DNA from: Nevskia sp. | GTDB lineage: Bacteria > Pseudomonadota > Gammaproteobacteria > Nevskiales > Nevskiaceae | NCBI GenBank assembly: GCA_016779605.1 | Contig: JADHNH010000031.1 | Location: forward strand, 2,125 to 34,124 | Direction: 5' to 3' | Length of the DNA stretch: 32,000 nt | Part shown: positions 2,519-25,748 of the stretch, in pieces | Position numbering within the stretch: the stretch's first letter is position 1 | Layout: each line of letters begins with the position of its first letter | Notes under the pieces: model-generated | The model's input: the letters and a program-made list of their open reading frames with translations, nothing else | The model's database searches: none | What the model was told of the DNA's origin: nothing | Position numbers and translations under genes: made by a program

Positions 2519-2626
2519 AACCGGGCGCTTGCCTCGCACGCCGGCCCGCGCAGTGCAGCGCCCGGCGATGCGCGGCATGGCGCGCCGGGGCTGCCCGCGT
2601 CCCGGCAGCGGGACAGGACGCGCCTC

Positions 2627-3832: not shown

Positions 3833-3845
3833 GGTCGTTGGTGGC

Positions 3846-4655
3846 TCAGATGATCTTGTGCTTGCGGCAGAACGCGGTCACCAGCCCGGCGATGAGCTTC
3901 GGGTCTTCGAACATCGGGTAGTGGCCGATATTCTTGAGGTGCAGCACCTCGGCGTTCTTGAGCAGGCGCCCGGTTTCCTCGACCAGCTCGCGCGGCACCC
4001 AGAAGTCGTCTTCGCCGCGGATCAGCAGGATCGGGCACGTCACGCCCTTGAGCCTGGCGCGAACGTCGTGCCGGGCCCAGCCTTCGAGGTCGCCCACCGC
4101 GCTGACCTGGGAATTGCGGTGCTGCCAGCGCAGCTCGGCGATCTTGTCGGCGGGGCACTTGCGGTTGAGCGATTCCGTCGCCGCCCGTTCCATCTGATCC
4201 TGCCAGCCGGGCGCCCATGACGGATGAACCATGCCGGAGGGCAGCGGGAATGTCGGCGTGCGCGCACAGCCCTCCATCGGCACGCCGGCGGCCATTTCGC
4301 GCCAATGATGGGCGGCATAATCCAGCGTGATGTCGCCGCCGATCGAGCAGCCGAGGATGACCGGCTTTTGCAGCCCGAGCGCCTGCACGAACGCGTGCAC
4401 GAACTCGGCGTGTTCGTGGATGGTGCGGTGCTGCTGCCAGTTGACCGGATAGGAGCGCGAGTGCCCGGGCAGATCCGGCGCGTAGGCATGGAAGCCGCTC
4501 TTCGCCAGCAGCGGCAGCAGGTACTGGTACTCCAGCGAACTGGCACCCGCCGTATGCACGCAGACGATGGGCCGGCCTTCGCCCAGTTCGTCGTAGAACG
4601 TCCGGGTGCCGTTGACCTTGACGTAGTGTCCGCGGATGTCTTCTGGCGTTGCCAT
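3846..4655 (-). CDS. Alpha/beta-fold hydrolase
   Basis: 269 aa. Has VCVHTAGASS (oxyanion region), nucleophile elbow G-C-S-I-G (ILGCSIGGD) and C-terminal HLKNIGHYPMFE (catalytic His region). Lies 13 nt upstream of the CoA-transferase start. Confidence 0.9.
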   Translation of the reverse strand: MATPEDIRGHYVKVNGTRTFYDELGEGRPIVCVHTAGASSLEYQYLLPLLAKSGFHAYAPDLPGHSRSYPVNWQQHRTIHEHAEFVHAFVQALGLQKPVILGCSIGGDITLDYAAHHWREMAAGVPMEGCARTPTFPLPSGMVHPSWAPGWQDQMERAATESLNRKCPADKIAELRWQHRNSQVSAVGDLEGWARHDVRARLKGVTCPILLIRGEDDFWVPRELVEETGRLLKNAEVLHLKNIGHYPMFEDPKLIAGLVTAFCRKHKII

Positions 4656-4671
4656 GGTGGTTCTCGTCGAG

Positions 4672-5100
4672 TTAGCGCTTGGCGGCGCAATCTTTGATCG
4701 CGTATGCGAGCAGGAACATCGCCTCGCTCATCCGTCCCGCTTCCAGGAGATTGCCCTCGGTGGCGATTTCCACCGAGCTTTCCCCCACTCGTTCGAGGCC
4801 CGGGTCGTCCTCGAAGTAGCGCTTGCCCGGGAACGTCAGGTCGGCCCACAGCCGCTTGCCGCTCAGCAGCAGGTTCCAGGACGCCTCGCTGCCGGCGAAC
4901 TTGAAGGTGTAGCCGAAAGGGGGAACCGCCGTCTGGTGGTCGATGACCTTGCCGCAATAGATCTTCAGCCATAGCCGATCGTCGTCCACCTGCAGCAGAA
5001 CCGAGCCGTCGAACCAGCGTGTCTGCTCGCAGAAAGCGGCATTGGCAGCGAGCGCTTTCAACAGCCGCGCCTGAAATGCGGGATTTGCGATGAAACTCAT
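4672..5100 (-). CDS. SCP2 sterol/lipid-carrier-like domain protein
   Basis: 142 aa. Strong RBS AAGGAGG upstream of the ATG. The pattern FQARLLKALAANAAF...WLKIYCGKV...FKFAGSEASWNLLLSGK...EGNLLEAGRM resembles SCP2 domains. The family call is by pattern only. Confidence 0.65.
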   Translation of the reverse strand: MSFIANPAFQARLLKALAANAAFCEQTRWFDGSVLLQVDDDRLWLKIYCGKVIDHQTAVPPFGYTFKFAGSEASWNLLLSGKRLWADLTFPGKRYFEDDPGLERVGESSVEIATEGNLLEAGRMSEAMFLLAYAIKDCAAKR

Positions 5101-5243
5101 GCCCGGCCTCCTTTGTCAGCGGTCAGACCCGCGCCTGTTGCAGGCGCCGGGAGCGAACGATTGCGCGGAAACGATCTTCTCACGTGCGGTCTCCCGGCAT
5201 CGGTGTTTCGGCGGCATCCATTTGCGGCCTGCGATCGCGCCCG

Positions 5244-6344
5244 TCACGCCCGTGCGCCCAGCAGCGGAACGCCCATCTTGCGCAGCAACGGCAGGATTTC
5301 CCGTTCGAAGCGCAAGGTGTCCTTGTAATAGTCCAGGAAGATCATCAGGAAGCCGTCCATGCCGGCCTCGAACAGGTCGCGCAGCTTTTCCGCCACCTGC
5401 TCGCGCGTGCCGATCACCGGCTGCGCGCCGGCGCCCAGGGCGAACTGCTCGGCGGTGAAGTTGTCGTAGGAGCCGCTCTGCACGTTCAGGCCGCGCGCCC
5501 AGTTGTCCACGGCAACGCGGTCGATGTTGTCGAGGATGCGGCGGCGCTCCTCTTCCGCTTCCCGCTCGGTGTCGCGCCACAGCACGAAGGGGTAGCAGGC
5601 GCATTGCACGCTGCGGCCGAGCCGCTGCGCGCGCCGCTTGATGTCGGCCACCACCTCGCGCGAAGCCTCCAGCGTCGGCGGGCTGATGAAGGACCAGTCG
5701 CATACCCGCGACACCACTTCCTTGGCGTCCTCGGAGCTGCCGGCGTTGGCAATGACGGGATGCGGCTTCTGCAGCGGCTGCGGGCGCACGTAGCCGCCGG
5801 TGATCTTGTACCAGGGGCATTCGTAGTTGAAGCTGCCCGGCTCCTGCGTCCACAAGCCCTTGAGGATTTCGATGTAGGCCTCGGTGCGCCGGTAGCGCTC
5901 CGCGTGCGGCATCACCTCGATGCCCATCATGCCGAATTCCAGCTCGCTCCAGCCGCTGACGATGTTCAGCCCCCAGCGGCCCTTGCCGATGTGGTCCAGG
6001 GTGGCGCCCATCTTCGCCGTCGCCACCGGGTGGAACACCGGCACATGCACGGTGGAAAAGACCCGTATGCGCGAAGTGTTGGCCAGCAGGGCCGCGGCCC
6101 AGGTCATGGTTTCCTGCGAATTGCCTAGGTAGTCGGTCTTGCCGCCGTAGCCTTTCCACTTGGCGACCGGAAACAGGAAATCGAAGCCCGCCGCCTCCGC
6201 CGCCAGGGCGATGCGCAGGTTTGATTCGTACGTCCAGTCGTCCGGTTCGGGCTTGTAGGTGCTCATCGAATAGGCGTAGCTGCAGTTGGGCATGAACAGC
6301 CCAAGCTGCATGCGCCTGCCGTCATCGCCCGGCGTTGGTGACAT
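5244..6344 (-). CDS. LLM-class flavin-dependent monooxygenase (luciferase-like; RutA/SfnG-like subgroup)
   Basis: 366 aa. KWKGYGGKTDYL and GRWGLNIVSGW parallel RutA KLRGFGGKTEFW and GRFGVNLVTGW. GGAG lies 9 nt upstream of ATG 6344. An alternative start is ATG 6311 (MQLGLFMPN). Confidence 0.9.
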   Translation of the reverse strand: MSPTPGDDGRRMQLGLFMPNCSYAYSMSTYKPEPDDWTYESNLRIALAAEAAGFDFLFPVAKWKGYGGKTDYLGNSQETMTWAAALLANTSRIRVFSTVHVPVFHPVATAKMGATLDHIGKGRWGLNIVSGWSELEFGMMGIEVMPHAERYRRTEAYIEILKGLWTQEPGSFNYECPWYKITGGYVRPQPLQKPHPVIANAGSSEDAKEVVSRVCDWSFISPPTLEASREVVADIKRRAQRLGRSVQCACYPFVLWRDTEREAEEERRRILDNIDRVAVDNWARGLNVQSGSYDNFTAEQFALGAGAQPVIGTREQVAEKLRDLFEAGMDGFLMIFLDYYKDTLRFEREILPLLRKMGVPLLGARA

Positions 6345-6457
6345 CGAAGCTCACTCCAGATTTGCGGCGGCGCCGCTTGTTGACACGGATGAACGCGAGC
6401 GGCCGCGCGCCTGCCGGACTCCCCTGCCGCCGGCGGGCGCGCCACCCGGTGCGCGGG

Positions 6458-7672
6458 TCAATACGCCATCTCCAGCACCTCCATCACTTCGTCCACGGAT
6501 TGCACCGGCCGGGGGTTGGTGGCGACGATCATGTCGGCGATCGCGTCGGCGGCGATGGCGGGAAAGTCCTGCCGGCTCACGCCGACGTCGCGCAGGCGCC
6601 ACGGCTGATCCAGAGCCTTGACCAGCTGCAGCACGGCGTCGCGGCCGGCCTTGCGGGCGGACTCCGCATCCATGCCGGCGGTGTCGACGCCCATCAGCCC
6701 GGCGATCCAGCGCTGCTTGTCGCCGACGTGGTCTTTGTTCCAGGTCATCACGGCGTGCATCATCACGCAGGAGGTCTGGCCGTGCGGCACGTTGCAGCGC
6801 GCGCCGAGCTGATGGCCGATGCCGTGGCTGAGGCCCAGCGTGACGTTGGCCAGGCCCGATACCGACATCCACGCCGCGAGGTGCGCGCGGGTGCGGGCGG
6901 CGAGGTCGTCCGGCTGCGCCCGGCACTGGCGCAGCGTGCGCGCCAGCGTCTGCAGCGCATGGGCGGCCAGGGCGTCGGTGAACGGATGGGCGTTGCCGGA
7001 ACAGATCGCTTCGATGCAATGGTCCACCGAGCGCATGCCGGAAGACAGCCACAGCCACTGCGGCGTATCCAGGGTGAGCGCGGCGTCGAGGATGATGGCC
7101 TTGGCGGTGAGCTTGCGGTCGATGTACAGATCCTTCACCCGGCGCTTTTCGTCGGTGATGCCGACGAAGTGCGTGCATTCGCCGCCGGACAGCGTGGTGG
7201 AGATGGCGACCAAGGGGACGCAGGCGCCCTTGATGGGAGGGATCTCCAGCGTGGCGGGATATTCGAAGCGCGTGCGCATGCGTTCGAATCCGCCGGTGTC
7301 GGTGATGTTTTCCGCCAGCGCCAGGAGCACCGCCTTGGCCGTATCGTTGGGCGAGCCGCCGCCGAAACTGACCACGCCGTCCGCTCCCAGGCTGCGCGCG
7401 TAATCGGCCGCGCGCAGCACGGACCCCGCGTGCACGTGCTGCACCGTTTCGCTGAACACACCGGCGATGCGGCCCTTGGCCGCCGCCAGCACGCGGTCCA
7501 CCAGACCGGTTCTGCCGGCCAGCGAGCGCCCGGTGACGAGCACGGCGCGGCGCACGCCGTTGCTTTCCAGGATGTCCGCCAGGCTGGAGACGCTGCCGGG
7601 GCCGTAGTACACGTCGTCCAGCGGCAGCAGGGTGAAGCGCCCGGCCAGGGGCTTGTCCTCGCCAGCAAGCAT
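6458..7672 (-). CDS. Iron-containing (group III) alcohol dehydrogenase / maleylacetate-reductase-like oxidoreductase
   Basis: Track ORF is 6458..7687. The second ATG (7672, MLAGEDK) is directly preceded by GGAGGAGAGG, so it is preferred. GGGSPNDTAKAV (NAD-binding) and the His-rich metal region GLSHGIGHQLG...PHG are typical Fe-ADH motifs. Confidence 0.9.
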   Translation of the reverse strand: MLAGEDKPLAGRFTLLPLDDVYYGPGSVSSLADILESNGVRRAVLVTGRSLAGRTGLVDRVLAAAKGRIAGVFSETVQHVHAGSVLRAADYARSLGADGVVSFGGGSPNDTAKAVLLALAENITDTGGFERMRTRFEYPATLEIPPIKGACVPLVAISTTLSGGECTHFVGITDEKRRVKDLYIDRKLTAKAIILDAALTLDTPQWLWLSSGMRSVDHCIEAICSGNAHPFTDALAAHALQTLARTLRQCRAQPDDLAARTRAHLAAWMSVSGLANVTLGLSHGIGHQLGARCNVPHGQTSCVMMHAVMTWNKDHVGDKQRWIAGLMGVDTAGMDAESARKAGRDAVLQLVKALDQPWRLRDVGVSRQDFPAIAADAIADMIVATNPRPVQSVDEVMEVLEMAY

Positions 7673-7766
7673 CCTCTCCTCCGTCATTTTTGTCGCGTCG
7701 CGGTCGGCGCCAGCTCAGCGCGGTACCGTCACCTGCGCGAGCCGCCGCGCCGTGCACCGCCGTCGA

Positions 7767-9692: not shown

Positions 9693-10070
9693 TCAACGCC
9701 GGGCGCCGTTCCAATCCAGCGAAAGGCTTTGCGCCACCGCTGCAAGACGCCGGTCGCGCGTCCACAGGTGCGCGTCGCCGGCCAGGGTTGCAGCGGCCAG
9801 CAGGTGCACGTCCACATAACCGATGCCACGGCCGGCCAACCGATGCGCTTCGATGAATCCCAGCGCTTCCTCGTCGCTGGCCACGGGCGCCGCGGAGAGC
9901 TCGCGCAGCAGCGCCAGAAATTCCAGGCGGCCGGGGCCAAGGCTGCCGCAAGCCAGCTCGCCGACAACAAATGGATGGATCAGCACTTGCCCGGACTCGA
10001 GCGCGCCGGCCAATGCCGGCACGCCCTTGCGCAGGTGTTCGATCCAGACCGAGGTGTCGACCAGGATCAT
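9693..10070 (-). CDS. vapC: Type II toxin VapC (PIN-domain ribonuclease)
   Basis: 125 aa. Begins MILVDTSVWIEHLR, the PIN acidic residue context, then later GIGYVDVHLLAAA and WTRDRRL. The start overlaps the vapB stop by 4 nt. Confidence 0.9.
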   Translation of the reverse strand: MILVDTSVWIEHLRKGVPALAGALESGQVLIHPFVVGELACGSLGPGRLEFLALLRELSAAPVASDEEALGFIEAHRLAGRGIGYVDVHLLAAATLAGDAHLWTRDRRLAAVAQSLSLDWNGARR

Positions 10071-10276
10071 CGCGCCGCGGGCACGCCCCGCGGCCGCCGG
10101 CGCGGAACCGCACGCGCCTCCGGTTGGCTGCCGCCGAGGCGCGCCAGGCGGCGCGCGCTTTCCCTCTGGATCAGGGCACGCAGCCCCTCGTGCAGCAAGG
10201 CGGTGCGCTCGTCGAGGCCGGCGAGCCGCTGGGCTTCGCGCAGCAGTGCGTCGTCGAGGTTCACGGTGGTCCGCAT
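10067..10276 (-). CDS. vapB: Type II antitoxin VapB (small DNA-binding antitoxin)
   Basis: 69 aa. MRTTVNLDDALLREAQRLAGLDERTALLHEGLRALIQRESARRLARLGG is the typical antitoxin N-terminus found upstream of PIN toxins. ATGA overlap with vapC. Confidence 0.85.
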   Translation of the reverse strand: MRTTVNLDDALLREAQRLAGLDERTALLHEGLRALIQRESARRLARLGGSQPEARAVPRRRPRGVPAAR

Positions 10277-11332: not shown

Positions 11333-11371
11333 AGAAACAACCGCGCGCCGGCGCGAACGCGCGGCGCCGGC
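11333..11371 (-). terminator. Candidate intrinsic terminator of the pmo-cop operon
   Basis: On the minus strand, 5 nt after the stop at 11376: an 8-bp GC stem (GCCGGCGC / GCGCCGGC, 11364-11371 pairing with 11347-11354), a 9-nt loop, then 6 nt and TTGTTTCT (11333-11340). The U-tract is interrupted. Confidence 0.4.
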
Positions 11372-11375
11372 CCGC

Positions 11376-11825
11376 TCAGGGCGCCGGGTCCGGCGTCACC
11401 CGCACGCGCACCGTGCGCACCGAGCTTTCGATAGTGTCGTGAGCAGGGTCCGCCCAGAACGCGCTGATGCGGTGCGGGCCGGGCTTCACCGGCAGGTCGA
11501 ACACGAACAGGTAACGCTGGCCGCCCAGCCGGATCAGCTGCTGCTGCGCCGGCATCAGCACGGTGTCGTCCACCGCCACGTGCAGATGCACGCCCACCAC
11601 CGGCGCGCTCATGGTCAGCTTGCTCATGTCGCCGGGCGTGGCGAACACCAGGGCGAGCTGCGTGCCCACCTCGGCGCCGTCCCTGGGCAGCACGATCTTC
11701 AGCGGCGGCACCGCCGGCGCTGCGGCGGGCGCTTGCCGCGCTGGCGCCTGGGCCCGCGCCGGCACCACGGCGATGATCGTCGCGGCGCCCAGGAAGGCGG
11801 ACAGGGCAAGGGCTGGAACGCGCAT
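11376..11825 (-). CDS. Small secreted protein, last gene of the pmo-cop operon (possibly DUF4399-like beta-sandwich)
   Basis: ATG 11825 is preceded by AGGAG, which overlaps the copD TAG stop. Signal peptide MRVPALALSAFLGAATIIAVVPARA|QAP. The mature part contains VVGVHLHVAVDD, reminiscent of the GHHH..D element of DUF4399. The family call is tentative. Confidence 0.65.
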   Translation of the reverse strand: MRVPALALSAFLGAATIIAVVPARAQAPARQAPAAAPAVPPLKIVLPRDGAEVGTQLALVFATPGDMSKLTMSAPVVGVHLHVAVDDTVLMPAQQQLIRLGGQRYLFVFDLPVKPGPHRISAFWADPAHDTIESSVRTVRVRVTPDPAP

Positions 11826-11835
11826 TATTTTGCTC

Positions 11836-13821
11836 CTAGTGGACATGCTCGTCGGGCGGCGGCAGGATCTGCGGCTCGCGGTTGAGCGCGGCCACCTGCT
11901 CGCGCAGGCCGGCCGGGTCGGACCATCCGTCCGCCTCCTCCTCCGGGATCCAGCGCGCGCGGATGTAGCCGAAGCGGTCGATCAGGAACGCCATGCCGTC
12001 GCGCGGAATGTCGATGCGCTGCGGATCGCCGCGGTTCGCCACGGTGCGCGACAGCAGGTCGTAGCTGCCGCGGATTTCCCCGGCGCCGCGCGTCACCACG
12101 GTATACGGCGGCGTTTCCGTGGAAGCCTCCTGCCCGACCACGATCACGGCGAATTGCGGCCAGCCGGCGGACGCCGCCGACTGCGCGAGCCGGCGCAGCC
12201 GCGCGTCGCCGCCGGGGAACACCAGCAGCACCGCGCTGACGCCGCGGAAATCCTTGAGCTGCCGCGGCGTGCCGTCGGCCGACTCGTAGTAGAAATCCGG
12301 AGCGCCCAGCCAGGGCCGGTAAGGCACCATCTTCGGCGACAGGATGCGCGCCTGGAAGCCCTGCGAGAACGCGCGCAGGAAGTTGACCAGGTCCCAGCGG
12401 TCCTCCTCGGTCAGGACATCGGCAAAGCCGGGCATTTCGCTGCGCGGGATGCCGTGGCCCATCCACCAGTACATGTCGCCGGCGGTGTGCAGCGCGGTGT
12501 GCGGCTGGCTCAGGTTCGCCGGCGGCCTGGGCAGCGGCCTGCCCGCGGCGCCGTCGCCCAGCCCGCCGCCGCCGTGGCACATCACGCAGTGCGCCTCGTA
12601 GCTGGCCTGGCCGTGGGCGATCGACACGGTCAGGTAGGCCACTTCGGAGCGCCGGTAGGTGTCCGGAAACGCCGGCACCGAGAGCTGCCAGACCAGCAGG
12701 CCGCCGATGCCGGCCAGCGCGCCGGCGCCCACCGCCAGCCGCGTGCGCAGCGGCTTGGCGCGCCCGCCGCGGGCCAGCCAGACGCCCGCGGCGAGAGCCA
12801 GCGCAGCCGCCGCGCCGATCGCGTACGGGCCGCTGGGCAGCAGCCAGATCGGCCAGGTCGCCGCCGCCGAGATGCGGAACGGCAGCCACCAGTACGGCTG
12901 GGCATGGTTGGCGGGAGTGGTCTGCCCCAGCGTGCTGGCCAGCGCCAGCACCACCAGCGCGAGCGTGAATTCGGCCGCCACCAGCGTGCCGGCGCGCCGG
13001 TACAGCAGCCCGGCCTGCGCAGGATCGCCCAGGCCGGCCAGGTAGCCGCCCCGGACACGGTTGGCGACCGCCAGCGCCGCGGCCAGCACGGCCACCTTGG
13101 CGCACACCAGCAGGCCGTAGAGGGTCCCCAGCAGATCGCCCTGGCTGGCGATGTAGCTCCAGGCCAGGGTCGCGCCGGTGGCGATGATGAGCGCAACGCA
13201 GGCCGCCGCCAGGCGCGAAAAGCGCCGCAACGCCGCGGCCGCATAGGCGCAGCGCCCGGCGTCCGGCGCGGCGGCGATGCCGCGCACCAGCGCGATCCAG
13301 GCCGGCAGCGCGCCCACCCAGACCGTCACCGCCAGGACGTGCGCCACCTGCACCGGCAGCAGATACGGCGCCTCGCTGCCCGCGGCATGGCCGGACCAGG
13401 CGCCGGCCGCGGCGGCGGCGGCCGCGGCCAGCAGCACGGCCGCCGCACGCGCCGCCGCCAGCCCGCTGCGCACGGGAATCACCGCGATCGCCAGCATAGC
13501 CGCGCCGGCGGCCATGCGCAGCGCCCAGACCTGGCCGTACTGCGTGCCGGCGGCGAACTCGCGCAGCAGCGCGGGCTGTCCCAGCAGGGCGCGGATCGGT
13601 TGCTCGAGGGTGGCGGCCGCCTGCACCGGCAGCGCCAGCGCGACGGCGGCCAGGAACAGCGCCGCCGCGGCGGCCGGCAACATGCCGCAGCGCCTGCGCC
13701 AGTGCGACACCAGGGGATCGGCGGAAGCGCCCGCCAGCGCCAGGAACACCGTCAGCCCGATCACCAGGGCCAGGCCCAGGTGCGCGCCCAGCCGCGCCAG
13801 CGCGCCGACCGCTGCGGTCAC
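11836..13821 (-). CDS. copD: CopD-family copper transport membrane protein fused to a mono-haem cytochrome c domain and a Cys-less thioredoxin-fold (TlpA/AhpC-like) domain
   Basis: GTG 13821 overlaps the copC stop (GTGA). The upstream part of track ORF 11836..14058 lies inside copC. The first ~385 aa are polytopic and hydrophobic, as in CopD. Then come CVMCH (nt 12574-12588) and a downstream GIPRSEMPGF Met-ligand region (class I cytochrome c). Then APDFYYESADGTPRQLKDFRGVSAVLLVFPGGD...GMAFLIDRFGYIRARW follows the redoxin-fold pattern but contains no Cys. Confidence 0.85.
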   Translation of the reverse strand: MTAAVGALARLGAHLGLALVIGLTVFLALAGASADPLVSHWRRRCGMLPAAAAALFLAAVALALPVQAAATLEQPIRALLGQPALLREFAAGTQYGQVWALRMAAGAAMLAIAVIPVRSGLAAARAAAVLLAAAAAAAAGAWSGHAAGSEAPYLLPVQVAHVLAVTVWVGALPAWIALVRGIAAAPDAGRCAYAAAALRRFSRLAAACVALIIATGATLAWSYIASQGDLLGTLYGLLVCAKVAVLAAALAVANRVRGGYLAGLGDPAQAGLLYRRAGTLVAAEFTLALVVLALASTLGQTTPANHAQPYWWLPFRISAAATWPIWLLPSGPYAIGAAAALALAAGVWLARGGRAKPLRTRLAVGAGALAGIGGLLVWQLSVPAFPDTYRRSEVAYLTVSIAHGQASYEAHCVMCHGGGGLGDGAAGRPLPRPPANLSQPHTALHTAGDMYWWMGHGIPRSEMPGFADVLTEEDRWDLVNFLRAFSQGFQARILSPKMVPYRPWLGAPDFYYESADGTPRQLKDFRGVSAVLLVFPGGDARLRRLAQSAASAGWPQFAVIVVGQEASTETPPYTVVTRGAGEIRGSYDLLSRTVANRGDPQRIDIPRDGMAFLIDRFGYIRARWIPEEEADGWSDPAGLREQVAALNREPQILPPPDEHVH

Positions 13822-14216
13822 TGTGGGCCGGCGGCAGGCCCCACGGTGAACCGGTACCCGTAATCGACGAGATGGCCGTCGCGGGACAGCACGTGGTACC
13901 TGAGGGTGTAAGTGCCCGGCCCGGCGGCAGGCGCCGCGGCGGTAAGGCACTTGGGATTGTCTGCCACCGCCTGCGGCGGCCCCAGCGCCAGCGGCTGCTC
14001 CTTCGCGTCCAGCAGCTTCACGGTGGAGAACTTCACTTCCACCGCCTCGTTGAAGCACAGCTCCAGCTTGTCCGGCATGCGGCTGACCACCGCCCGGCTG
14101 CCGGGAACGGCGCGCACCAGGGCGGCATGCGCCAGCACCGGCCCTGGCATCGCGCAGGCCGCGGCGACCGCCAGCAGAACGCCCAGGCCAGCGCCCCGCG
14201 GCGGCTTCCGATTCAT
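13818..14216 (-). CDS. copC: CopC periplasmic copper-binding protein (Cu(II)-site-only, C0-1-like type)
   Basis: 132 aa from the internal ATG 14216, which overlaps the upstream stop (ATGA). Signal peptide ...MPGPVLA|HAALVRAVP gives a mature N-terminal His. D-G-H near the C-terminus (SRDGHLVDYGYRFTV) matches the His1/Asp/His Cu(II) site of CopC. No Met-rich Cu(I) site. Confidence 0.9.
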   Translation of the reverse strand: MNRKPPRGAGLGVLLAVAAACAMPGPVLAHAALVRAVPGSRAVVSRMPDKLELCFNEAVEVKFSTVKLLDAKEQPLALGPPQAVADNPKCLTAAAPAAGPGTYTLRYHVLSRDGHLVDYGYRFTVGPAAGPQ

Positions 14217-14806
14217 GCCTTCGGCTTCGGTGCGCGGCCGGTCATCCGGTACAGCACCAGCGACAGCGCGACCACGATCAGAAAGTACGGGAAGTAGCGC
14301 CAATACGACTTCACGCCGACGCGGAACGGGAACACCGAGTGGTAGACCTCGCCGGTGCGCTCGTTGGTGGCATTGAGCACGCCGATGTACCAGCCCGGCG
14401 CGGAGAAGGTGTTGTCCACCGTCACCGTGCCGCGCGGGTACTTCTGCGCGTCGGTGCTGAACAGCGTCGCCGCCTTGATGTCGTCGGCGCTGCCCAGGTC
14501 CATATACATGGCGCGCTTGCCCAGGCCGTGCACGTCCTTGAGCACCAGGAACTGCACGCCCATGTCGCGCAGCGGCGAGTCGATGAAGTCCATCACGATG
14601 ATCGCGCGGCCGAGCTCCGGGATGTCCTCGCAGAACTCCTGGGTGGCGCGCAGCTCGGGCTGGTAGCCGACGAAATGCGACTTGAACGGGCCGATGTGCA
14701 TGATGCACACGTCGTCCTTCATCGACACGCCGCCATGGGCGCGCGCCTGCGCGCCGCACAGCAGCATGGCCAGCGCCAGGCCGGCGGCGAGGCTGCGCAG
14801 CCTCAT
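14213..14806 (-). CDS. Exported, C-terminally membrane-anchored protein of unknown family in the PmoD/AmoD position
   Basis: 197 aa from the internal ATG 14806, which overlaps the pmoB stop (ATGA). Signal peptide MRLRSLAAGLALAMLLCGAQARA|HGG, a soluble domain of ~140 aa, one C-terminal TM helix YFPYFLIVVALSLVLY and a basic tail RMTGRAPKPKA. A C-I-M-H cluster sits at aa 34-37. Confidence 0.8.
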   Translation of the reverse strand: MRLRSLAAGLALAMLLCGAQARAHGGVSMKDDVCIMHIGPFKSHFVGYQPELRATQEFCEDIPELGRAIIVMDFIDSPLRDMGVQFLVLKDVHGLGKRAMYMDLGSADDIKAATLFSTDAQKYPRGTVTVDNTFSAPGWYIGVLNATNERTGEVYHSVFPFRVGVKSYWRYFPYFLIVVALSLVLYRMTGRAPKPKA

Positions 14807-16032
14807 CCGAACACCGGGATCATCGGGCCGCCGACCTCCACCGGGTAGCGCTTGCCGTCGCCGTCGTAGAAGAACAGCATCACGGCGACGATGGCGTCCG
14901 GCGAGTCGATCATGGTGGTCATGCGCTCGGTTTCCCACAGCGCGTCGTCGGCGTACACCACGATGTCGCGCGTCTCGCCCGGCGCGACCGGCCCGCCGTC
15001 GACGTGCAGGGCGTCGGACGCCACCAGGTCGTCGGCGTCGGCCGGCTTGACCTGCAGCACCGAGGAATTGACGAAGCGCACGTTGCCGGCGTCGAGCTCG
15101 CCGACCGTCACCGGGCTGCTGCCCCTGTTCGTGACGGTGAGGGCCACGCGGAAGCTGCGGCCGGGGATGCGGTAGCGCGCTTCGTTCATGCGCACGTCCA
15201 GCGGCACCGCCGGGCGCTGCGCCGGCGGCGCGGCGATCTTGCCGGCCTGCAGCGCCGTGGTGATCGGCCACTTGTCGTCGGCGTACATGTAGCCGCCGAC
15301 GATCAGCGACAGCGTCAGGACCAGAAAGCCCAAGGCCACCCGGCGGTCGCCCAGCGTGATCATCTGGTCGGCGTTGGCGCCCAGCTCGGCGGCGCGGCGG
15401 AAGCGCGGCAGGATGATCGGCACCCGCAGCAGCCACCAGACGAACCAGGCCACGCCGACCACCGCCCACAGGATGGACCAGTGCACGGCGTTGGCATAAC
15501 CGAACGACTCGAGGTCGATGTCCTGGCCCAGCAGGGTCTTGGCGGTGTTGGTGAACGCCGCCTGGTCGCCGCCGATCTCCACCCACAGGCCGGGCCCGAT
15601 CAGCGGGCCAGTGTCCTTGACGTTGATCACCGGGTGGATGTGGTAGCGGCCCGGCTTGCGCGCCTTGAGCGTGATCTCGAAGTTGTACTGCAGCTCCGGG
15701 TGGAACGAGGTGGAGCGGATCATCGGCACGCCGTTGACGCGCGAGTCCAGGCGCACGAACGAGGGCCCGGGCACGCCGATGTTGAGGAACGCCGTTTCCT
15801 CCGCCGACGGGAACTGGGTGGGCCAGAAGTCCGAGGGGATGAAGCTGCCCTTCACCACCAGGATCTGGTTGACGTCCAGCTTGGTGGCCGACACCGTCAC
15901 GTCGAACCAGTGCACCGTGCGCATGCGCACCTGCGGCATCTGCGCGCGCTCGCCGTGTGCTGCGGCGAGCGGGGAGAAGCCGCCGACGCAGGCGGTGGCC
16001 AGGGCGATGGCCAGTATCTTGAGGATTTTCAT
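14803..16032 (-). CDS. pmoB: Copper membrane monooxygenase subunit B (PmoB/AmoB family)
   Basis: 409 aa. After signal peptide ...SPLAAA|HGERAQMPQVRMRTVHWFD it aligns by eye with M. capsulatus PmoB HGEKSQAAFMRMRTIHWYD. Also KARKPGRYHIHPVINV vs KARRPGDWHVHTMMNV, two central TM helices, a C-terminal cupredoxin region (RYRIPGRSFRVALTVTNRGSSPVTVGE) and the terminus PMIPVFG. Confidence 0.95.
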   Translation of the reverse strand: MKILKILAIALATACVGGFSPLAAAHGERAQMPQVRMRTVHWFDVTVSATKLDVNQILVVKGSFIPSDFWPTQFPSAEETAFLNIGVPGPSFVRLDSRVNGVPMIRSTSFHPELQYNFEITLKARKPGRYHIHPVINVKDTGPLIGPGLWVEIGGDQAAFTNTAKTLLGQDIDLESFGYANAVHWSILWAVVGVAWFVWWLLRVPIILPRFRRAAELGANADQMITLGDRRVALGFLVLTLSLIVGGYMYADDKWPITTALQAGKIAAPPAQRPAVPLDVRMNEARYRIPGRSFRVALTVTNRGSSPVTVGELDAGNVRFVNSSVLQVKPADADDLVASDALHVDGGPVAPGETRDIVVYADDALWETERMTTMIDSPDAIVAVMLFFYDGDGKRYPVEVGGPMIPVFG

Positions 16033-16042
16033 GGCAGTGGCC

Positions 16043-16795
16043 TCAAATGATCTTGCGCAGCCAGGTGGTGCGCGACACCAGAGACCCGATCCAGACCCAG
16101 AACCAGTAGCTGAGCACCGTCAGGAAGCCGGCGAACACCGCCGTCAGCGGCGTCACCACGCCGCCGAAGGTGCGCAGGGTGGAATGCTCGATGATGCGCA
16201 CGTACTCGGGAATCGCCGTGCGCACGTACTCGAAGCCCATCAGGTCGGCCACCGTCAGCATGTTGCCGTGCAGCTCCAGCGGCACGTGGTAAGCGGCCAG
16301 CAGCGGCCAGTTGAGCGGGTAGATCAGCGCACCGAACAGGTAGCCGCCGATCAGGCCGGTCCAGAACCAGCTGCGAGTCAGCACCAGCACGGTGTCCAGG
16401 ATCAGGCCCAGCGCTATGAAGGTGGACGGGAACACCATATCCATCGGGAAGCCGCCGAAGCCATGGAAGTTCATGTAGCGGCTGACCCAGGCGGCCGCGG
16501 ACAGGGCCAGGATGGTCAGCGTGCCGCCCACCGGCAGGCGCAGGCGGTCCCACAGCAGGTAGCCGAACACGCCCGGGATCACCGACAGCGCCAGCGGCGT
16601 CACCAGCGGCCACCAGCGGCGGTCGCGCCAGTCGATCCAGTAGTCCCAGTCGCCCACCAGCAGGGCGAAGTGCACGCTGAACACGGCGGCGAACAGCATG
16701 ATCACCAGCGGAATGACCAGCCAGTCCACGGTGATGTCCAGGCGGTGGCGGAAATCGGCCACCTGGGCCGGTGTATTGGTGGTGACGGCGCTCAT
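16043..16795 (-). CDS. pmoA: Copper membrane monooxygenase subunit A (PmoA/AmoA family)
   Basis: 250 aa from ATG 16795 (RBS GGAGAGG); the track ORF extends to 16912. VHFALLVGDWDYWIDWRDRRWWPLVTP, YVRTAIPEYVRIIEHSTLRTFGG and similar blocks match the PmoA/AmoA blocks HAMLTMGDWDFWSDWKDRRLW and [22 protein letters not shown]. Confidence 0.95.
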   Translation of the reverse strand: MSAVTTNTPAQVADFRHRLDITVDWLVIPLVIMLFAAVFSVHFALLVGDWDYWIDWRDRRWWPLVTPLALSVIPGVFGYLLWDRLRLPVGGTLTILALSAAAWVSRYMNFHGFGGFPMDMVFPSTFIALGLILDTVLVLTRSWFWTGLIGGYLFGALIYPLNWPLLAAYHVPLELHGNMLTVADLMGFEYVRTAIPEYVRIIEHSTLRTFGGVVTPLTAVFAGFLTVLSYWFWVWIGSLVSRTTWLRKII

Positions 16796-16927
16796 AAACC
16801 TCTCCAGATCGAACGCAAAAAACCAGGCCCCCTGCGGCGGGAGCTCTCTATCATGATTGAGTGAAAGACCGGATCGCGGCGAGGCTCGAAAAGCCCCGGT
16901 GACAACCCGCATTCCGGCGACACCGGC

Positions 16928-16951
16928 CGGCGCGTATTCCTTTACGCGCCG
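16928..16951 (-). other. Stable 9-bp GC-rich hairpin in the pmoC-pmoA intercistronic spacer (possible RNA processing/stability element)
   Basis: CGGCGCGTA (16928-16936), 6-nt loop, TACGCGCCG (16943-16951), perfect complementarity. It lies 64 nt after the pmoC stop inside a 219-nt untranslated spacer. No U-tract follows. Confidence 0.4.
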
Positions 16952-17014
16952 CCGGTTGGTTCATCCGACTGCTTCTCCCGCGCGGGCCCTGGCCGGGGCG
17001 CCGCGCAGCTTGGC

Positions 17015-17821
17015 TCAGGCGGGCCGGGCCGCAGTTTCCATGCTGCGCACCAGCTCGCTCATGCGCGAGAACATCTGCACCAGCAAGCCGCCGGCGGCGA
17101 AGAACGACCAGCCCAGCACCACGAAGCCCCAGTGGATCGGCGCGGCGAACAGTTCCTCGGCATAGAAGAACGTGTGGCCCCATTCGTTGAAGCCGACGTT
17201 GGGCATGATCAGGATCGGGCCGGCCACGATCATCGCGTGCGGCACCGACAGCCTGGCCGCGAACTGCGGCAGCCGGGTGCGCGCATACATGAAGTGGATG
17301 GCCGAGAACAGGATGGTCATCGGCGTGCCGAAGTAGAACAGGCCGACGTGCGTGGGCGTGAAGTCGGTATCGCGCACGGTGATCTGGTGCCAGGTCGCAT
17401 CGGATTCCGCATACAGCGAAAAGATGATGTAGGCGCAGATCGTGGTGGCCATCAGCTGCACGATCAGGAACATGTAGCGGCGCAGCTCGTCCATCGGGCT
17501 GAGCGCTTCCATGTGGCGGTCGCGCGTCTTCCACAGGTAGGAGACGGACGCCACGCCGACCACGCCGATCACGATCAGCTGAACGAACATCAGGTTCATC
17601 CAGTACGTGCGGAAATCCGGGCTGAAGTAGTCCATCCCGTGGGTGAAGGCGGTGGCCTCGGTGTACCAGCGGTACAAGCCGAACAGCAACAGCATGCCAA
17701 CCAGCCCGGCGGAGAACTTGCCCCAGGGCAGGTTCAGGCTCAGCATGCGCGCGGCGGCGGCGGCCTTTGTCGGCCTGGCGCCTTTGGCTGTCATGCCGTC
17801 GTTTGGAATCGTTGCGGCCAT
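17015..17821 (-). CDS. pmoC: Copper membrane monooxygenase subunit C (PmoC/AmoC family)
   Basis: 268 aa. RBS GGAGAG 7 nt upstream. YLWKTRDRHMEALSP, DATWHQITVRDTDFTPTH, RTRLP and ILIMPNVGFNEWGHTFFYAEELFAAPIHWGF match M. capsulatus PmoC YLWKTRDRNLAALTP, DGTWHQTIVRDTDFTPSH and [29 protein letters not shown]. Confidence 0.95.
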   Translation of the reverse strand: MAATIPNDGMTAKGARPTKAAAAARMLSLNLPWGKFSAGLVGMLLLFGLYRWYTEATAFTHGMDYFSPDFRTYWMNLMFVQLIVIGVVGVASVSYLWKTRDRHMEALSPMDELRRYMFLIVQLMATTICAYIIFSLYAESDATWHQITVRDTDFTPTHVGLFYFGTPMTILFSAIHFMYARTRLPQFAARLSVPHAMIVAGPILIMPNVGFNEWGHTFFYAEELFAAPIHWGFVVLGWSFFAAGGLLVQMFSRMSELVRSMETAARPA

Positions 17822-17910
17822 CAGTCGTCTCTCCAGTCAAAAGAAAATTTGACGCACCCGAAAAGGCAAAGTCACAAGCACACGCAATGCTTCGCTCTCT
17901 TAACGATTCA

Positions 17911-17939
17911 ACAATGGCATGGTGCCCTGCCACTGTCAA
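17911..17939 (-). promoter_or_regulatory. Candidate sigma70-type promoter of the pmoCAB operon (TTGACA-N17-CATTGT)
   Basis: On the minus strand, TTGACA (17939-17934), a 17-nt spacer, then CATTGT (17916-17911). This would give a 5' UTR of roughly 80 nt. The -10 matches only 3 of 6 positions. The spacer contains the inverted repeat TGGCA-N8-TGCCA (17915-17932). Confidence 0.3.
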
Positions 17940-18113
17940 TAGTGCGTATCTTTAGTACGCATTTTTTCTCTGTACACGCAAAATCAGCCCTTGTCGAGTC
18001 GATCGGACGGCAGGCCACCTCTCTGAACCGCCATTCCCTCCGGCCCGGCGCCACCGCGCCGCGCCCTGCCGCACGTCGCCCATACCCTCGAACAATTTCC
18101 GACGACCATCCTC

Positions 18114-18551
18114 ATGAAACCTTCCGAACGTCCCCGCCGCGCCGCCGCCAGGCCCGCGGAACAGCGCGTCGCCGCCCGCCGCAGCCCGCTCAACGGCACC
18201 GGCCTGTTCGCCCGAACCCGGCTGCCCGCCCGCCGCAAGATCGGCGAGCTGAGCGGCACCCTGGTGCGGCTGCCCGCGGCCTGGGCGACCGTCGCCGGGG
18301 CGCGCAAGATCTACCTGGTGCAGGTCAGCGCGCGTTATGCGCTGGAATGCTCCGACGGCAACGATTTCAAGTTCCTGAACCACAGCTGCGAGCCGAACTG
18401 CTTCCTGCGGGTGTACCGCCGGCGCGTGGAGGTCTATGCCCTGCGCAGCCTCGCCGCGGGCACCGAGCTGACCGTCGACTACGGCCAGACCCCGCATCGC
18501 AACGGCATGCGCTGCACCTGCGGCGCGGCGCGGTGCCGCGGCGTGGTTTAA
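18114..18551 (+). CDS. SET-domain protein (putative protein lysine methyltransferase)
   Basis: 145 aa. RRSPLNGTGLFA (SET N-terminus), NHSCEPN (aa 89-95), ELTVDYG, and the post-SET Cys cluster C-T-C-G-AAR-C-RG at the C-terminus. Confidence 0.85.
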   Translation: MKPSERPRRAAARPAEQRVAARRSPLNGTGLFARTRLPARRKIGELSGTLVRLPAAWATVAGARKIYLVQVSARYALECSDGNDFKFLNHSCEPNCFLRVYRRRVEVYALRSLAAGTELTVDYGQTPHRNGMRCTCGAARCRGVV

Positions 18552-18878: not shown

Positions 18879-21269
18879 ATGAACGACCTCGCCCAGACAC
18901 CCGCACCCGCCACCCAGCCGCTGGACGCCGCCGAGCTGGCCCGCCTCAACGCCTGGTGGCGCGCAGCCAATTACCTCTCGGTCGGGCAGATCTACCTGCT
19001 GGACAACGCGCTGCTGCGCGAGCCGCTGCGGCCCGAGCACGTCAAGCTGCGCCTGCTCGGCCACTGGGGCACCACGCCGGGCCTCAACTTCGTCTACGCG
19101 CACCTGAACCGGCTGATCCGACGCGACGGTGTGCGCATGATCTACATCGCCGGCCCCGGCCACGGCGGGCCGGGCATGGTCGCCAACACCTGGCTCGAAG
19201 GCAGCTACAGCGAGCTGTTTCCGAACATCGGGCGCGACGCCGCCGGCATGCAGCAGCTGTTCCGCCAGTTTTCGTTTCCGGGCGGCGTCGGCAGCCATGT
19301 CACCCCCGAAACCCCGGGCTCGATCCACGAGGGCGGCGAGCTCGGCTACAGCCTGGCCCATGCCTACGGCGCGGCGTTCGACAATCCCGACCTCGTCGCC
19401 GTGTGCGTGGTCGGCGACGGCGAGGCCGAGACCGGCCCGCTGGCAACCGCCTGGCATTCGAACAAGTTCCTGAATCCGGCGCGCGACGGCGCGGTGCTGC
19501 CGATCCTGCACCTGAACGGCTACAAGATCGCCAACCCCACCGTGCTCGCCCGGATTCCGGGCGAGGAGCTGGCGAGCTTGCTCGCCGGCTACGGCTACCG
19601 GCCGCTGTTCGTCGCCGGCGAAGACCCGGATGCGGTGCACCAGCAGATGGCGGCCGCGCTGGACGATGCGTTCACCGAGATCCGCAGAATCCAGGCGGCG
19701 GCGCGGACCGGCGGTGCGGTGCAGCGGCCGCGCTGGCCCATGGTCGTGCTCAAGACGCCCAAGGGCTGGACCGGCCCCAAAACGGTGGACGGCAAGAAAA
19801 CCGAAGGCTCATGGCGCTCGCACCAGGTGCCGCTGGCCGAAGTGGCGACCAACCCGGCCCACCTGACGCAGCTCGAAGCCTGGATGCGCAGCTACCGGCC
19901 GGAGGAACTGTTCGACGAACAGGGCCGACCGCGTCCGGCGGTGACGGCGCTGGCACCCGACGGTGCGCTGCGGATGGGCGCCAGCCCGCACGCCAACGGC
20001 GGCCTGCTGCTGCGCGACCTGCGGCTGCCGGACTTCCGCGGGCATGCCGTCGAGGTGCCCCGGCCGGGCGGCCTGGAAACCGAATCGACGCGCGTGCTCG
20101 GGCGCTACCTGCGCGACGTGATGGCGCTGAATGCCGAGGCCGGCAACTTCCGCGTATTCGGCCCCGACGAAACCGCTTCCAACCGCCTGGACCCGCTGTT
20201 CGAGACCACGGCGCGCAGCTGGATGGCCGCGCTGGAGGACGGCGACGACCACCTGGCCGCCGATGGCCGGGTCATGGAGATCCTGTCCGAGCACACCTGC
20301 CAGGGCTGGCTGGAAGGCTACCTGCTGACCGGGCGCCACGGCCTGTTCTCCTGCTACGAGGCGTTCATCCACATCGTCGACTCGATGTTCAACCAGCACG
20401 CCAAGTGGCTCAAGACCAGCAAGGAAGTGCCGTGGCGGCGGCCCATCGCCTCGCTCAACTACCTGCTCACCTCGCACGTCTGGCGCCAGGACCACAACGG
20501 CTTTTCGCACCAGGATCCCGGCTTCATCGACCACGTCGTCAACAAGAAGGCCGACATCATCCGCGTCTACCTGGCGCCCGACGCCAACACGCTGCTGTGC
20601 ATCGCCGACCGCTGCCTGCGTTCGCGCAATTTCATCAACGTGGTCGTCGCCGGCAAGCAGCCGCAGCCGCAGTGGCTGGACATGGACGCCGCGATCAAGC
20701 ACTGCGCCGCCGGCATCGGCATCTGGGAATGGGCCAGCAACGACGGCGAGTCCGAGCCCGACGTGGTGCTGGCCTGCGCCGGCGACGTGCCGACGATCGA
20801 GGTGCTGGCGGCGGTGGATATCCTGCGCCGGCACGCGCCCGAGTTGCGCATGCGCGTGATCAACGTCGTGGACCTGATGACCCTGCAGCCGCACGAGGAA
20901 CATCCGCACGGCCTGTCCGACCGCGACTTCGACGCCCTGTTCACCCGCGACAAGCCGATCATTTTCGCCTACCACGGCTACCCCTGGCTGATCCACCGCC
21001 TGACCTACCGCCGCGTCAACCACGACAACCTGCACGTGCGCGGCTACAAGGAGGAAGGCTCCACCACCACGCCGTTCGACATGGCGGTGCGCAACGACCT
21101 GGACCGCTTCCACCTCGTCGCCGACGTGGCGGACCGCGTGCCCAAGCTGGCCTACCGCGCGGCCTATCTCAAGCAGCTGGTGCGCGACAAGCTCACCGAG
21201 CACCGGCAATACATCACCCGCTACGGCCAGGACCTGGAGGAGATCCGCAACTGGCAGTGGCCGTATTGA
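18879..21269 (+). CDS. xfp: Phosphoketolase (xylulose-5-phosphate/fructose-6-phosphate phosphoketolase, ThDP-dependent)
   Basis: 796 aa. [40 protein letters not shown] and [11 protein letters not shown] are the phosphoketolase signature blocks. Length is typical. Confidence 0.95.
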
Positions 21270-25479: not shown

Positions 25480-25584
25480 GCGTGGCGGATCGGGCGCGCG
25501 ACGCACGAAGCATATTCGAACGCCGCTGCCGGCGTGGCTCCGCGCGCGGCGCGCCGCCGTGGGCCATCCGCGCCGCCGCCGCAG

Positions 25585-25604
25585 ATCATATAATCGGATA
25601 TGAT
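25585..25604. promoter_or_regulatory. Inverted repeat ATCATAT-N6-ATATGAT overlapping a perfect TATAAT hexamer, between the membrane protein gene and the BVMO gene
   Basis: Read directly: 7-bp perfect arms (25585-25591 and 25598-25604). TATAAT at 25589-25594 on the plus strand. Lies within a ~45-nt AT-rich island, 145 nt upstream of the BVMO ATG. Confidence 0.35.
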
Positions 25605-25748
25605 TTGTTACGATATTACTTAGACGGCCATCCCGCGCCGCCGCACACGGCACCGATGGGCCGGCCGGCCGCCATGCCGGAGCCGGTCCGTCGGCTCGCA
25701 GGGCAGGCGCCGCTCTCCATTGGCTTTTTGGATTTTCCAGGCTCGCAA

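Follow-up and report, generated by a model that had tools for sequence, protein, structure and literature searches.

Copper membrane monooxygenases (CuMMOs) listed as acting on neither methane nor ammonia have been recorded in several groups related to the locus described here. Khadka et al. (2018) named the operon of Solimonas aquatica as a CuMMO of unknown function (PMC6215863), and Awala et al. (2021) counted the enzymes of Polaromonas, Rhodoferax and Solimonas among those of unknown function (PMC8630023); in both papers the CuMMOs of this clade are listed as non-methane, non-ammonia enzymes. Within the genus Nevskia, Mosley et al. (2022) described a metagenome-assembled genome (MAG), nzgw585, with xmoCAB, and plotted the groundwater transcript abundance of amoA, pmoA and xmoA (PMC9562985). 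Two papers cite Rochman et al. (2020, ISME J), one for these CuMMOs (PMC9562985) and the other for isotope probing and quantitative PCR in an oil-sands tailings pond (PMC8784404), and a data-mining study of 2026 includes pmoCAB-bearing Nevskiales MAGs in its list (PMC13603553). Here we describe a CuMMO operon on the minus strand of a 32,000-nucleotide stretch of a Nevskia sp. assembly (GCA_016779605.1, contig JADHNH010000031.1, positions 2,125 to 34,124; this whole stretch is called the window). The operon is a member of the known Nevskiales/Burkholderiales xmoCABD clade of CuMMOs and not a novel lineage, and its product is predicted to be a short-chain alkane monooxygenase. Both the lineage and its presence in Nevskia were known before.

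The locus is one operon of seven co-oriented genes, xmoC-xmoA-xmoB-xmoD-copC-copD/cytc fusion-X156 (window positions 11376-17821), and is thus larger than its catalytic trio. The products of xmoC, xmoA, xmoB and xmoD are referred to interchangeably by their Pmo names. The genes are as follows, in order of transcription (aa, amino acids; ORF, open reading frame):

17015..17821, minus strand: xmoC, PmoC/AmoC homologue of 268 aa (Pfam AmoC, 9.8e-79, profile positions 8-243 of 245)
16043..16795, minus strand: xmoA, PmoA/AmoA homologue of 250 aa, counted from the start Met of MSAVTT (Pfam AMO, 3.4e-78, profile positions 9-237 of 238)
14803..16032, minus strand: xmoB, PmoB/AmoB homologue of 409 aa with a signal peptide (Pfam Monooxygenase_B, 1.1e-117, profile positions 1-380 of 380)
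14213..14806, minus strand: xmoD, PmoD homologue of 197 aa (PDB 6cpd_A PmoD, E 4.3e-12)
13818..14216, minus strand: copC, periplasmic copper-binding protein of 132 aa (Pfam CopC, 3.1e-18)
11836..13821, minus strand: copD fusion of 661 aa (Pfam CopD, 6.7e-14, and Cytochrom_C, 1.5e-13)
11376..11846, minus strand: X156, the seventh gene, an ORF of 156 aa (149 aa from the NCBI start) identified by its conservation after copD

From xmoB through xmoD and copC to copD, successive genes overlap by 4 nt in the ORF coordinates and in public gene calls, which is consistent with translational coupling. The lengths of the xmoC, xmoA and xmoB products (268, 250 and 409 aa) are identical in independent public gene calls (Logan contig), and no frameshifts were seen in these three genes. 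The public look-up gives SRR12042686 as the single run with this sequence; no link from it to BioProject PRJNA699054 was found. The initial annotation of this DNA had recognized a minus-strand pmoCAB-type operon in C-A-B order, and the full-length Pfam matches (E values of 1e-78 to 1e-117) bear this out. Its outline of the locus held for the catalytic trio only: the four further genes in 11333-14802 had been missed, as had a Fe-alcohol dehydrogenase at 6458-7687 and the gene cluster at 1496-7687 (discussed below).

The PmoA protein is 100% identical to an NCBI entry from a 34-kb contig, 'MAG: methane monooxygenase/ammonia monooxygenase subunit A [Nevskia sp.]', and its next-best match is a metagenomic sequence that is 87% identical. 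A scan of one genome per GTDB species gave 57 related loci. PmoA identity is 67-72% to Oceanococcaceae and Nevskiales MAGs, Sinimarinibacterium sp. CAU 1509 and Solimonas aquatica DSM 25927, and 63-67% to Acidovorax, Polaromonas, Rhodoferax and Hydrogenophaga. Identities to the reference enzymes are 41.7% for the particulate methane monooxygenase (pMMO) of Methylococcus capsulatus Bath, 40.2% for Pxm, 36.4% for HmoA of Mycolicibacterium chubuense NBB4 and 36.0% for Rhodococcus sp. ZPP. Trees were built by neighbour joining (not maximum likelihood) from Kimura distances over 812 concatenated C, A and B columns, with 100 bootstraps. The references were Bath (from PDB) and the plasmid records of NBB4 hmoCAB, Rhodococcus ZPP and Methylomagnum pxmABC; the lineages of Rochman et al. 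were left out. The window lies in a 16-member clade of Nevskiales and Burkholderiales enzymes with 100% bootstrap support, inside a Nevskiales subclade (66-71%) of which it is the deepest branch. MAG enzymes from Pseudomonadales and Porticoccaceae make up the successive outer groups, Bath and Pxm form a separate pair (93%), and the actinobacterial pair is the outgroup (100%). Clustering with NBB4 HmoCAB and Rhodococcus ZPP, which would mark a member of the Hmo/Bmo group, is not observed (26-36% identity).

These results do not support the suggestion of the initial annotation that this is a candidate for a novel lineage. The PmoA is already deposited from a Nevskia MAG and is 63-72% identical to a known clade with 100% bootstrap support; the concatenated XmoCAB phylogeny, a check which that annotation had itself proposed, puts the genes inside an already described Nevskiales/Burkholderiales clade; and members of that clade had been named before (PMC6215863, PMC8630023), including Nevskia xmoCAB (PMC9562985). 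The divergence from methanotroph PmoA that it had noted is real, as judged by the 41.7% identity to Bath and by the family scores given below. Because the gene tree follows host taxonomy and the codon composition is native (GC content at third codon positions, GC3, is 0.89-0.93 in the operon genes, the same as in surrounding genes, in a window of 61-77% GC per kb), ancient residence in the Nevskiales appears more likely than recent transfer.

The NCBIfam scores agree with the tree in indicating that the enzyme is neither a canonical ammonia monooxygenase (AMO) nor a canonical pMMO. The equivalog cut-offs were not reached for AmoA_BACT (271.3 against 290 bits) or AmoC_BACT (283.6 against 319), nor were the pMMO/AMO cut-offs of TIGR03080 (247.7 against 318.2), TIGR03078 (254.6 against 280.6) and TIGR03079 (371.3 against 394.9). 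The AmoB_BACT cut-off was passed by PmoB (501.4 against 336 bits). Domains of methanol dehydrogenase, hydroxylamine oxidoreductase (HAO), cytochrome c554/cM552, the ribulose monophosphate (RuMP) pathway and the serine cycle were all absent from the 32-kb window, so that, as first noted, nothing in it resembles a methanotroph or nitrifier module. An AMO serving heterotrophic or cryptic nitrification would account for the AmoB_BACT score and for the PDB searches, in which AMO chains score nearly level with pMMO chains, and Nevskia xmoA has been reported beside amoA in a study of nitrogen cycling (PMC9562985). The missed AmoA_BACT and AmoC_BACT cut-offs, the lack of HAO and cytochrome c554/cM552 domains in the window, and the separation of the clade from the pMMO/Pxm reference pair speak against this, and we consider it very unlikely. 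Rochman and colleagues, for their part, reportedly predicted that related Betaproteobacteria do not catabolize ammonia.

Copper ligands were compared by phmmer alignment to the Bath pMMO chains from PDB. PmoB H26, H131 and H133 align with Bath His33, His137 and His139 (CuB); PmoC D141, H145 and H158 align with Asp156, His160 and His173 (CuC); and PmoC N212, H216 and H230 align with Asn227, His231 and His245 (CuD). In addition, PmoB H41 aligns with Bath His48, and I65 stands at the position of His72. The equivalences listed in the initial annotation, including the replacement of His72 by Ile, are each confirmed by this alignment. The CuB, CuC and CuD ligands are invariant in 58-60 aligned homologues, including NBB4 Hmo, Rhodococcus ZPP and Pxm. 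With full-length C, A and B homologues and these conserved ligands, the locus has the features of a CuMMO; the catalytic subunits are all intact, and the operon is complete and apparently functional. Ligand conservation speaks for integrity and not for substrate specificity, since the same residues are equally invariant in the alkane-oxidizing Hmo and ZPP enzymes and in Pxm.

This limits the case for a bona fide methane monooxygenase, which would make Nevskia an unrecognized (facultative) methanotroph. In its favour, the operon has every copper ligand of pMMO, each of the three subunits finds its best PDB match in a Bath pMMO chain, and there is a phosphoketolase gene 1 kb upstream. The ligands, however, are just as conserved in the alkane-oxidizing actinobacterial Hmo, identity to Bath pMMO is only 40-45%, the three subunits fall under the TIGR03078, TIGR03079 and TIGR03080 cut-offs, and genes for methanol dehydrogenase, the RuMP pathway and the serine cycle were not found in the window. 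Related Betaproteobacteria are also said, in the 2020 work of Rochman and colleagues, not to have assimilated 13C-methane. We regard methane as the physiological substrate as extremely unlikely. As a separate observation on the catalytic subunits, the gene calls of one metagenomic relative (locus L070, 10799-12820) join AmoA and Monooxygenase_B in one product of 673 aa, owing either to a true fusion of A and B or to an artefact (a frameshift or an assembly error).

Synteny was assessed with tblastn, every protein of the window being searched against the 57 loci, and neighbouring genes were compared by ORF clustering of the 18 closest loci. Genes xmoC, xmoA and xmoB were found in the 57 loci wherever the contig permits. 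A PmoD homologue follows xmoB in 54 of them, the remaining three contigs stopping just past xmoB; this feature of the xmoCABD clade, a pmoD-family gene immediately 3' of xmoB, is also present in the window. In Solimonas and Oceanococcaceae the next genes are copC, copD/cytc and X156; in Polaromonas and two other Burkholderiales loci these three are found at a distance of no more than a few kb. The genes that flank the operon in the window have no syntenic counterparts in the relatives. Upstream of the operon the Burkholderiales loci encode an acyl-CoA synthetase, a GMC oxidoreductase and an aldehyde dehydrogenase; directly after xmoD comes a pyrroloquinoline quinone-dependent alcohol dehydrogenase (PQQ-ADH) with a cytochrome c domain, and a MalT/LuxR regulator is often present as well. 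A GMC gene, with or without aldehyde dehydrogenase, is near the operon in Sinimarinibacterium, Oceanococcus and Solimonas, and in Panacagrimonas (L067) an AlkB-like desaturase, its reductase and a PQQ-ADH stand beside xmoCABD. By their predicted functions, these neighbours, present in the Burkholderiales loci and in L003, L005, L008 and L067, constitute a gene set for terminal oxidation, from alkane through alcohol, aldehyde and acid to acyl-CoA.

It is because of these neighbouring genes, combined with the literature, that we consider the enzyme to be probably a short-chain alkane (hydrocarbon) monooxygenase. Xmo clusters of the xmoCABD type are reportedly found in Rhodoferax and Polaromonas, whose hosts, in the 2020 work of Rochman and colleagues, are said to have assimilated ethane and propane and not methane. 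XmoCAB would form a trimer of trimers in the inner membrane, where a small hydrophobic substrate, most likely a C2-C4 alkane and possibly a somewhat longer one, would be hydroxylated at the PmoC copper site with O2 and quinol-derived electrons. The resulting alcohol would enter ordinary heterotrophic metabolism, and PmoD, CopC, the CopD-cytochrome c protein and X156 would take up copper in the periplasm, reduce it and hand it on to the enzyme. The statement in the initial annotation that the substrate is unknown thus remains formally true, while evidence at the level of the clade points to short-chain alkanes.

Several points weigh against this assignment. The alcohol dehydrogenase, aldehyde dehydrogenase and acyl-CoA synthetase neighbours of the relatives have no counterparts by tblastn in the 32-kb window, which therefore lacks a feature of the clade that is contextual rather than strictly defining. 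All that the window offers is an unrelated Fe-alcohol dehydrogenase (6458-7687), approximately 3.7 kb off the operon. The substrate assignment draws on the ecology and gene context of relatives, among which the sister clade is not matched to a particular Rhodoferax/Polaromonas lineage of Rochman et al. Furthermore, CuMMOs are promiscuous, and substrate has shifted repeatedly within the family (PMC6215863).

The physiological substrate might instead be another small organic compound, such as an ethylene-type alkene, acetone, or a cyclic or branched alkane. The CuMMO family does reach beyond methane and ammonia, to ethylene, acetone and possibly methylcycloalkanes: ethylene oxidation has been proposed for Haliea, acetone is the substrate of Methylacidiphilum PMO3, and cyclic or branched alkanes have been proposed for Porticoccaceae (PMC6215863; PMC8630023; bioRxiv 10.1101/2022.11.07.515388). 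The next-outer groups in our tree are Pseudomonadales and Porticoccaceae MAG enzymes, and a Baeyer-Villiger monooxygenase (BVMO), an esterase and two glutathione S-transferases (GSTs) in the window could process ketones, esters and epoxides. These genes, however, are syntenic in none of the 57 relatives and are parted from the operon by a terminator-like hairpin, by vapBC or by more than 7 kb, and the conserved neighbours of the relatives specify a terminal alcohol/aldehyde/acyl-CoA route and not an epoxide or ketone one. We consider such a substrate unlikely. A subterminal propane route (2-propanol, acetone, methyl acetate) through the flanking esterase, BVMO and Fe-alcohol dehydrogenase was also considered and rejected: there is no synteny in the 57 relatives, and the terminator-like hairpin and vapBC set these genes apart from the operon.

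XmoD has a signal peptide, a periplasmic domain and a C-terminal transmembrane helix, and no Pfam or NCBIfam match was found for it. The CuA-forming motif of PmoD/AmoE proteins, Cx7MxHxnC, corresponds to Cys41, Met49, His51 and Cys65 in PmoD Met49242_1452 (PMC6189053). XmoD lacks this motif: it has Cx9HxnC, with Lys at the Met49 position in the alignment to 6cpd_A, and the aligned homologues of the gamma/beta super-clade all have K, R or Q there. PmoDs of the Cx9HxnC class bind copper and form no CuA (Fisher et al. 2018, PMC6189053), and by its motif XmoD fits this class. The mature N-terminus HGG(V/M)(S/G/A) of XmoD is kept in the aligned homologues, and in PmoB, PmoD and CopC alike a His directly follows the predicted signal-peptide cleavage site (AAA/HGE, ARA/HGG and LA/HAA, with the slash marking cleavage), which suggests amino-terminal copper sites in all three. 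CopC scores 4.9e-20 against NCBIfam copper_CopC, below the cut-off of that model.

The copD fusion comprises a CopD part of approximately 10 transmembrane helices, a cytochrome c domain with the heme motif CVMCH, and a thioredoxin/AhpC-like domain at the C-terminus that lacks CxxC; this C-terminus has weak similarity to TlpA and AhpC-TSA, and some homologues match PF00578. All 191 close homologues share one architecture, and full-length homologues fall into at least 340 representative clusters at E <= 1e-30. Genomic context was sampled for nine homologues, two of which were cut at the contig end. In six of the seven uncut contexts (Bradyrhizobium, a Sphingobium plasmid, Panacagrimonas, two MAGs and one 30%-identical member) the fusion stands beside CuMMO genes, together with a PmoD-like gene and CopC; the 30%-identical member adjoins Monooxygenase_B and a PCuAC-like gene. 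The seventh context keeps the PmoD-like gene and CopC, and pmoCAB is not present. One of the contig-end homologues adjoins CopC; its contig includes a cytochrome P460 gene as well, a hint that the host oxidizes ammonia or methane. The idea that the copD-cytochrome c fusion is a heterotroph-specific novelty is weakened by the number of clusters and by the Monooxygenase_B/PCuAC-like and P460 contexts, and the fusion probably represents the usual 'copD' found in extended pmo/amo operons. No description of its cytochrome c domain, or of the X156 gene, was found in the literature searched. In locus L069 (3667-8878), which is syntenic with Panacagrimonas L067, genes for TetR, a reductase, an AlkB-like desaturase and a PmoD-like protein occur with copC and copD/cytc and without xmoCAB, which suggests that the catalytic genes were lost and the copper accessory genes retained.

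X156 has no Pfam or NCBIfam match above threshold, and its homologues are labelled 'hypothetical' in databases without exception (32 of 32). An NCBI hypothetical protein of this locus has the tag ISP90_07305. The protein is secreted and has invariant HxH, M-P and W-x-D-x2-H motifs; a His-rich N-terminus is found in most homologues and is missing from the X156 of the window. The gene is kept after copD in L001, L008, L064-66, L068 and L070. AlphaFold2, run with database homologues, confidently predicts X156 to be an immunoglobulin (Ig)-like beta-sandwich (pLDDT, the predicted confidence, 84) that matches only generic Ig and fibronectin type III (FnIII) folds. Identification as a divergent PCuAC or cupredoxin was rejected, with no PF04314 match and only sub-threshold DUF6130 and DUF4399 hits beside the generic Ig/FnIII fold. 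X156 has the position that is taken by PCuAC in the Methylosinus operon. A role as copper chaperone, perhaps in place of PCuAC, is a plausible guess.

We also entertain, as a distinctly improbable case, that the seven genes form a self-sufficient module whose four accessory proteins serve the enzyme as obligatory partners and not as agents of generic copper homeostasis. In that case the cytochrome c domain of the fusion could reduce Cu(II) for insertion or could even be a part of the long-sought electron path to the CuMMO active site, and the natural substrate in an oligotrophic groundwater Nevskia might be other than C2-C4 alkanes. This would fit with the place of the fusion beside CuMMO genes in six of the seven uncut contexts.

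Three non-coding features accompany the operon:

17934..17961, minus strand: candidate promoter/operator block, with TTGACA (17939-17934) and an inverted repeat (17943-17961)
16796..17014, minus strand: structured xmoC-xmoA spacer of 219 nt, identified by its folding z-score, with a hairpin and U-run at 16844-16827
11340..11365, minus strand: terminator-like GC-rich hairpin after the last gene, with a 10-bp stem (7 GC pairs) followed by TGTTTCT

Upstream of xmoC, TTGACA abuts the perfect inverted repeat TGCGTA-N7-TACGCA. The block is nearly invariant in the two closest metagenomic relatives (L059 and L060) within a region that is 79% identical, and in that alignment the arms of the repeat are conserved and the spacer is variable. 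Across 60 loci, the repeat occurs upstream of xmoC only in L058-L060 and is absent from the other 57. We consider the block a candidate operator/promoter on the strength of this conservation. A sigma-70 consensus scan upstream of xmoC found no full promoter, and a sigma-54 promoter seen by eye in the same region (TGGCAG...TGC) was rejected, as its GG-to-GC spacing is one base too long. RNA of the xmoC-xmoA spacer folds with a minimum free energy of -108.2 kcal/mol (z = -2.83 against shuffles) and includes the terminator-like site; L059 has a hairpin at the equivalent place, of different sequence and without the U-run. This hairpin may act in mRNA processing, stability or attenuation. The hairpin after X156 folds no better than shuffles (z = -0.81), weak evidence on which it likely marks the end of the operon. 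Rfam and tRNA scans of the window gave no matches.

Such features also bear on whether the operon could be a relic, silent or in decay, that no longer has a function. The lack in the window of the downstream alcohol and aldehyde genes kept by relatives would fit such a relic. Its seven ORFs are nevertheless intact and full length, their GC3 equals that of the surrounding genes, the copper ligands are invariant, a relative with 87% identity shares the promoter block, and xmoA of a Nevskia MAG is among the groundwater transcript data (PMC9562985). The chance of a relic seems to us close to negligible.

The flanks of the window are of the heterotroph-like, GC-rich kind first described, and the domains named then are confirmed: a hormone-sensitive lipase (HSL)-type esterase, vapBC (9693-10276), two GSTs, an enoyl-CoA hydratase (crotonase), the BVMO and an acyl-CoA dehydrogenase (ACAD). 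The BVMO (25482-27677, plus strand) is of type I, with the fingerprint FAGRCFHTAEWP (FxGxxxHxxxWP) at residue 376 of the ORF; in its longest ORF approximately 190-220 residues precede the Rossmann motif, and either the gene starts further in or the protein has an N-terminal extension. A SET-domain protein (18114-18551, plus strand; Pfam SET, 6.8e-16) is divergent from xmoC, an arrangement shared with the 87%-identical relatives L059 and L060 and not with more distant loci. SET-domain proteins are uncommon in bacteria. The phosphoketolase (18879-21269, plus strand), approximately 1 kb upstream of the operon, is full length (XFP_N/XFP/XFP_C, E down to 9e-175) and is not syntenic in the relatives. 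On the other side, a run of co-oriented catabolic genes (1496-7687, minus strand) encodes a nitronate monooxygenase-like protein, a family III CoA-transferase, an alpha/beta hydrolase, an unknown 142-aa ORF, a luciferase-like monooxygenase and the Fe-alcohol dehydrogenase, and may be a separate degradation cluster.

The locus adds a well-preserved Nevskia member to a clade of heterotroph CuMMOs. In groundwater and sediments this clade is probably a consumer of short-chain alkanes, and it confounds pmoA/amoA surveys of methane and ammonia oxidizers. The window presents the conserved core, xmoCABD-copC-copD/cytc-X156, stripped of the variable alcohol/aldehyde genes, so that the accessory genes that accompany the enzyme stand out more clearly; delimiting this seven-gene core and its unannotated seventh gene family are the most useful by-products of the analysis. 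Solimonas aquatica DSM 25927, Sinimarinibacterium sp. CAU 1509, Polaromonas eurypsychrophila AER18D-145 and Panacagrimonas perspica are cultured members of the clade, so the substrate question is directly testable, and the answer would most likely confirm the existing suspicion.

Of the described systems, the hmoCAB genes of Mycolicibacterium chubuense NBB4 and Rhodococcus sp. ZPP are the outgroup in the tree. The operon shares with these the C-A-B order, the same copper ligands and a likely role in C2-C4 alkane oxidation in a heterotroph; identities are only 36% (A), 26-28% (B) and 32-36% (C), and the actinobacterial genes are plasmid-borne and followed by small hypothetical genes and an AMP-binding gene, with no pmoD, copC or copD. 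With Bath pMMO (PDB 3rgb, 7ev9) it has in common the three-subunit architecture, the C-A-B order and all CuB, CuC and CuD ligands. It differs from Bath in sequence (41.7% identity for A, 40.4-40.5% for B and 43-45% for C), in belonging to a separate clade, in having Ile in place of His72 of the bis-His site, and in its heterotrophic host context. CopC and CopD are associated with pmo/amo operons (PMC6189053), and the accessory order of PmoD, CopC, CopD and a small periplasmic protein resembles that of the alphaproteobacterial methanotroph pmoCAB-pmoD-copC-copD-pCuAC and of amoCABED-copCD in betaproteobacterial ammonia oxidizers (PMC6189053). Unlike the in-operon PmoDs of those methanotrophs (Cx7MxHxnC, CuA), the PmoD of the window has Cx9HxnC, and unlike in the extended pmo operons, the last gene is not PCuAC (no PF04314 match) but belongs to an unannotated Ig-like family.

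The xmoCABD loci of Polaromonas, Rhodoferax, Hydrogenophaga and Acidovorax, Betaproteobacteria reported to use alkanes (Rochman et al. 2020, ISME J 14:714), form a sister subclade, united with the window at 100% bootstrap (PmoA 63-67%). They share the position of xmoD directly downstream and have homologues of copC, copD/cytc and X156 within a few kb; the window differs in lacking the PQQ-ADH-cytochrome c insert, the upstream acyl-CoA synthetase, GMC and aldehyde dehydrogenase genes, and the MalT/LuxR regulator. The operons of Solimonas aquatica, Sinimarinibacterium, Oceanococcaceae and Nevskiales MAGs come from the same order-level host group. Their flanking genes are wholly different, and loci L003, L005 and L008 have GMC oxidoreductase or aldehyde dehydrogenase neighbours that the window lacks; their proteins are 67-72% (PmoA), 61-68% (PmoB) and 56-59% (PmoC) identical by tblastn, and Solimonas (L008) and Oceanococcaceae (L001) have all seven genes in the same order as the window, xmoCABD-copC-copD/cytc-X156. 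The Nevskia MAG nzgw585 (PMC9562985) agrees with the window in both genus assignment and type of gene cluster, its best match being approximately 86% as against 87% here.

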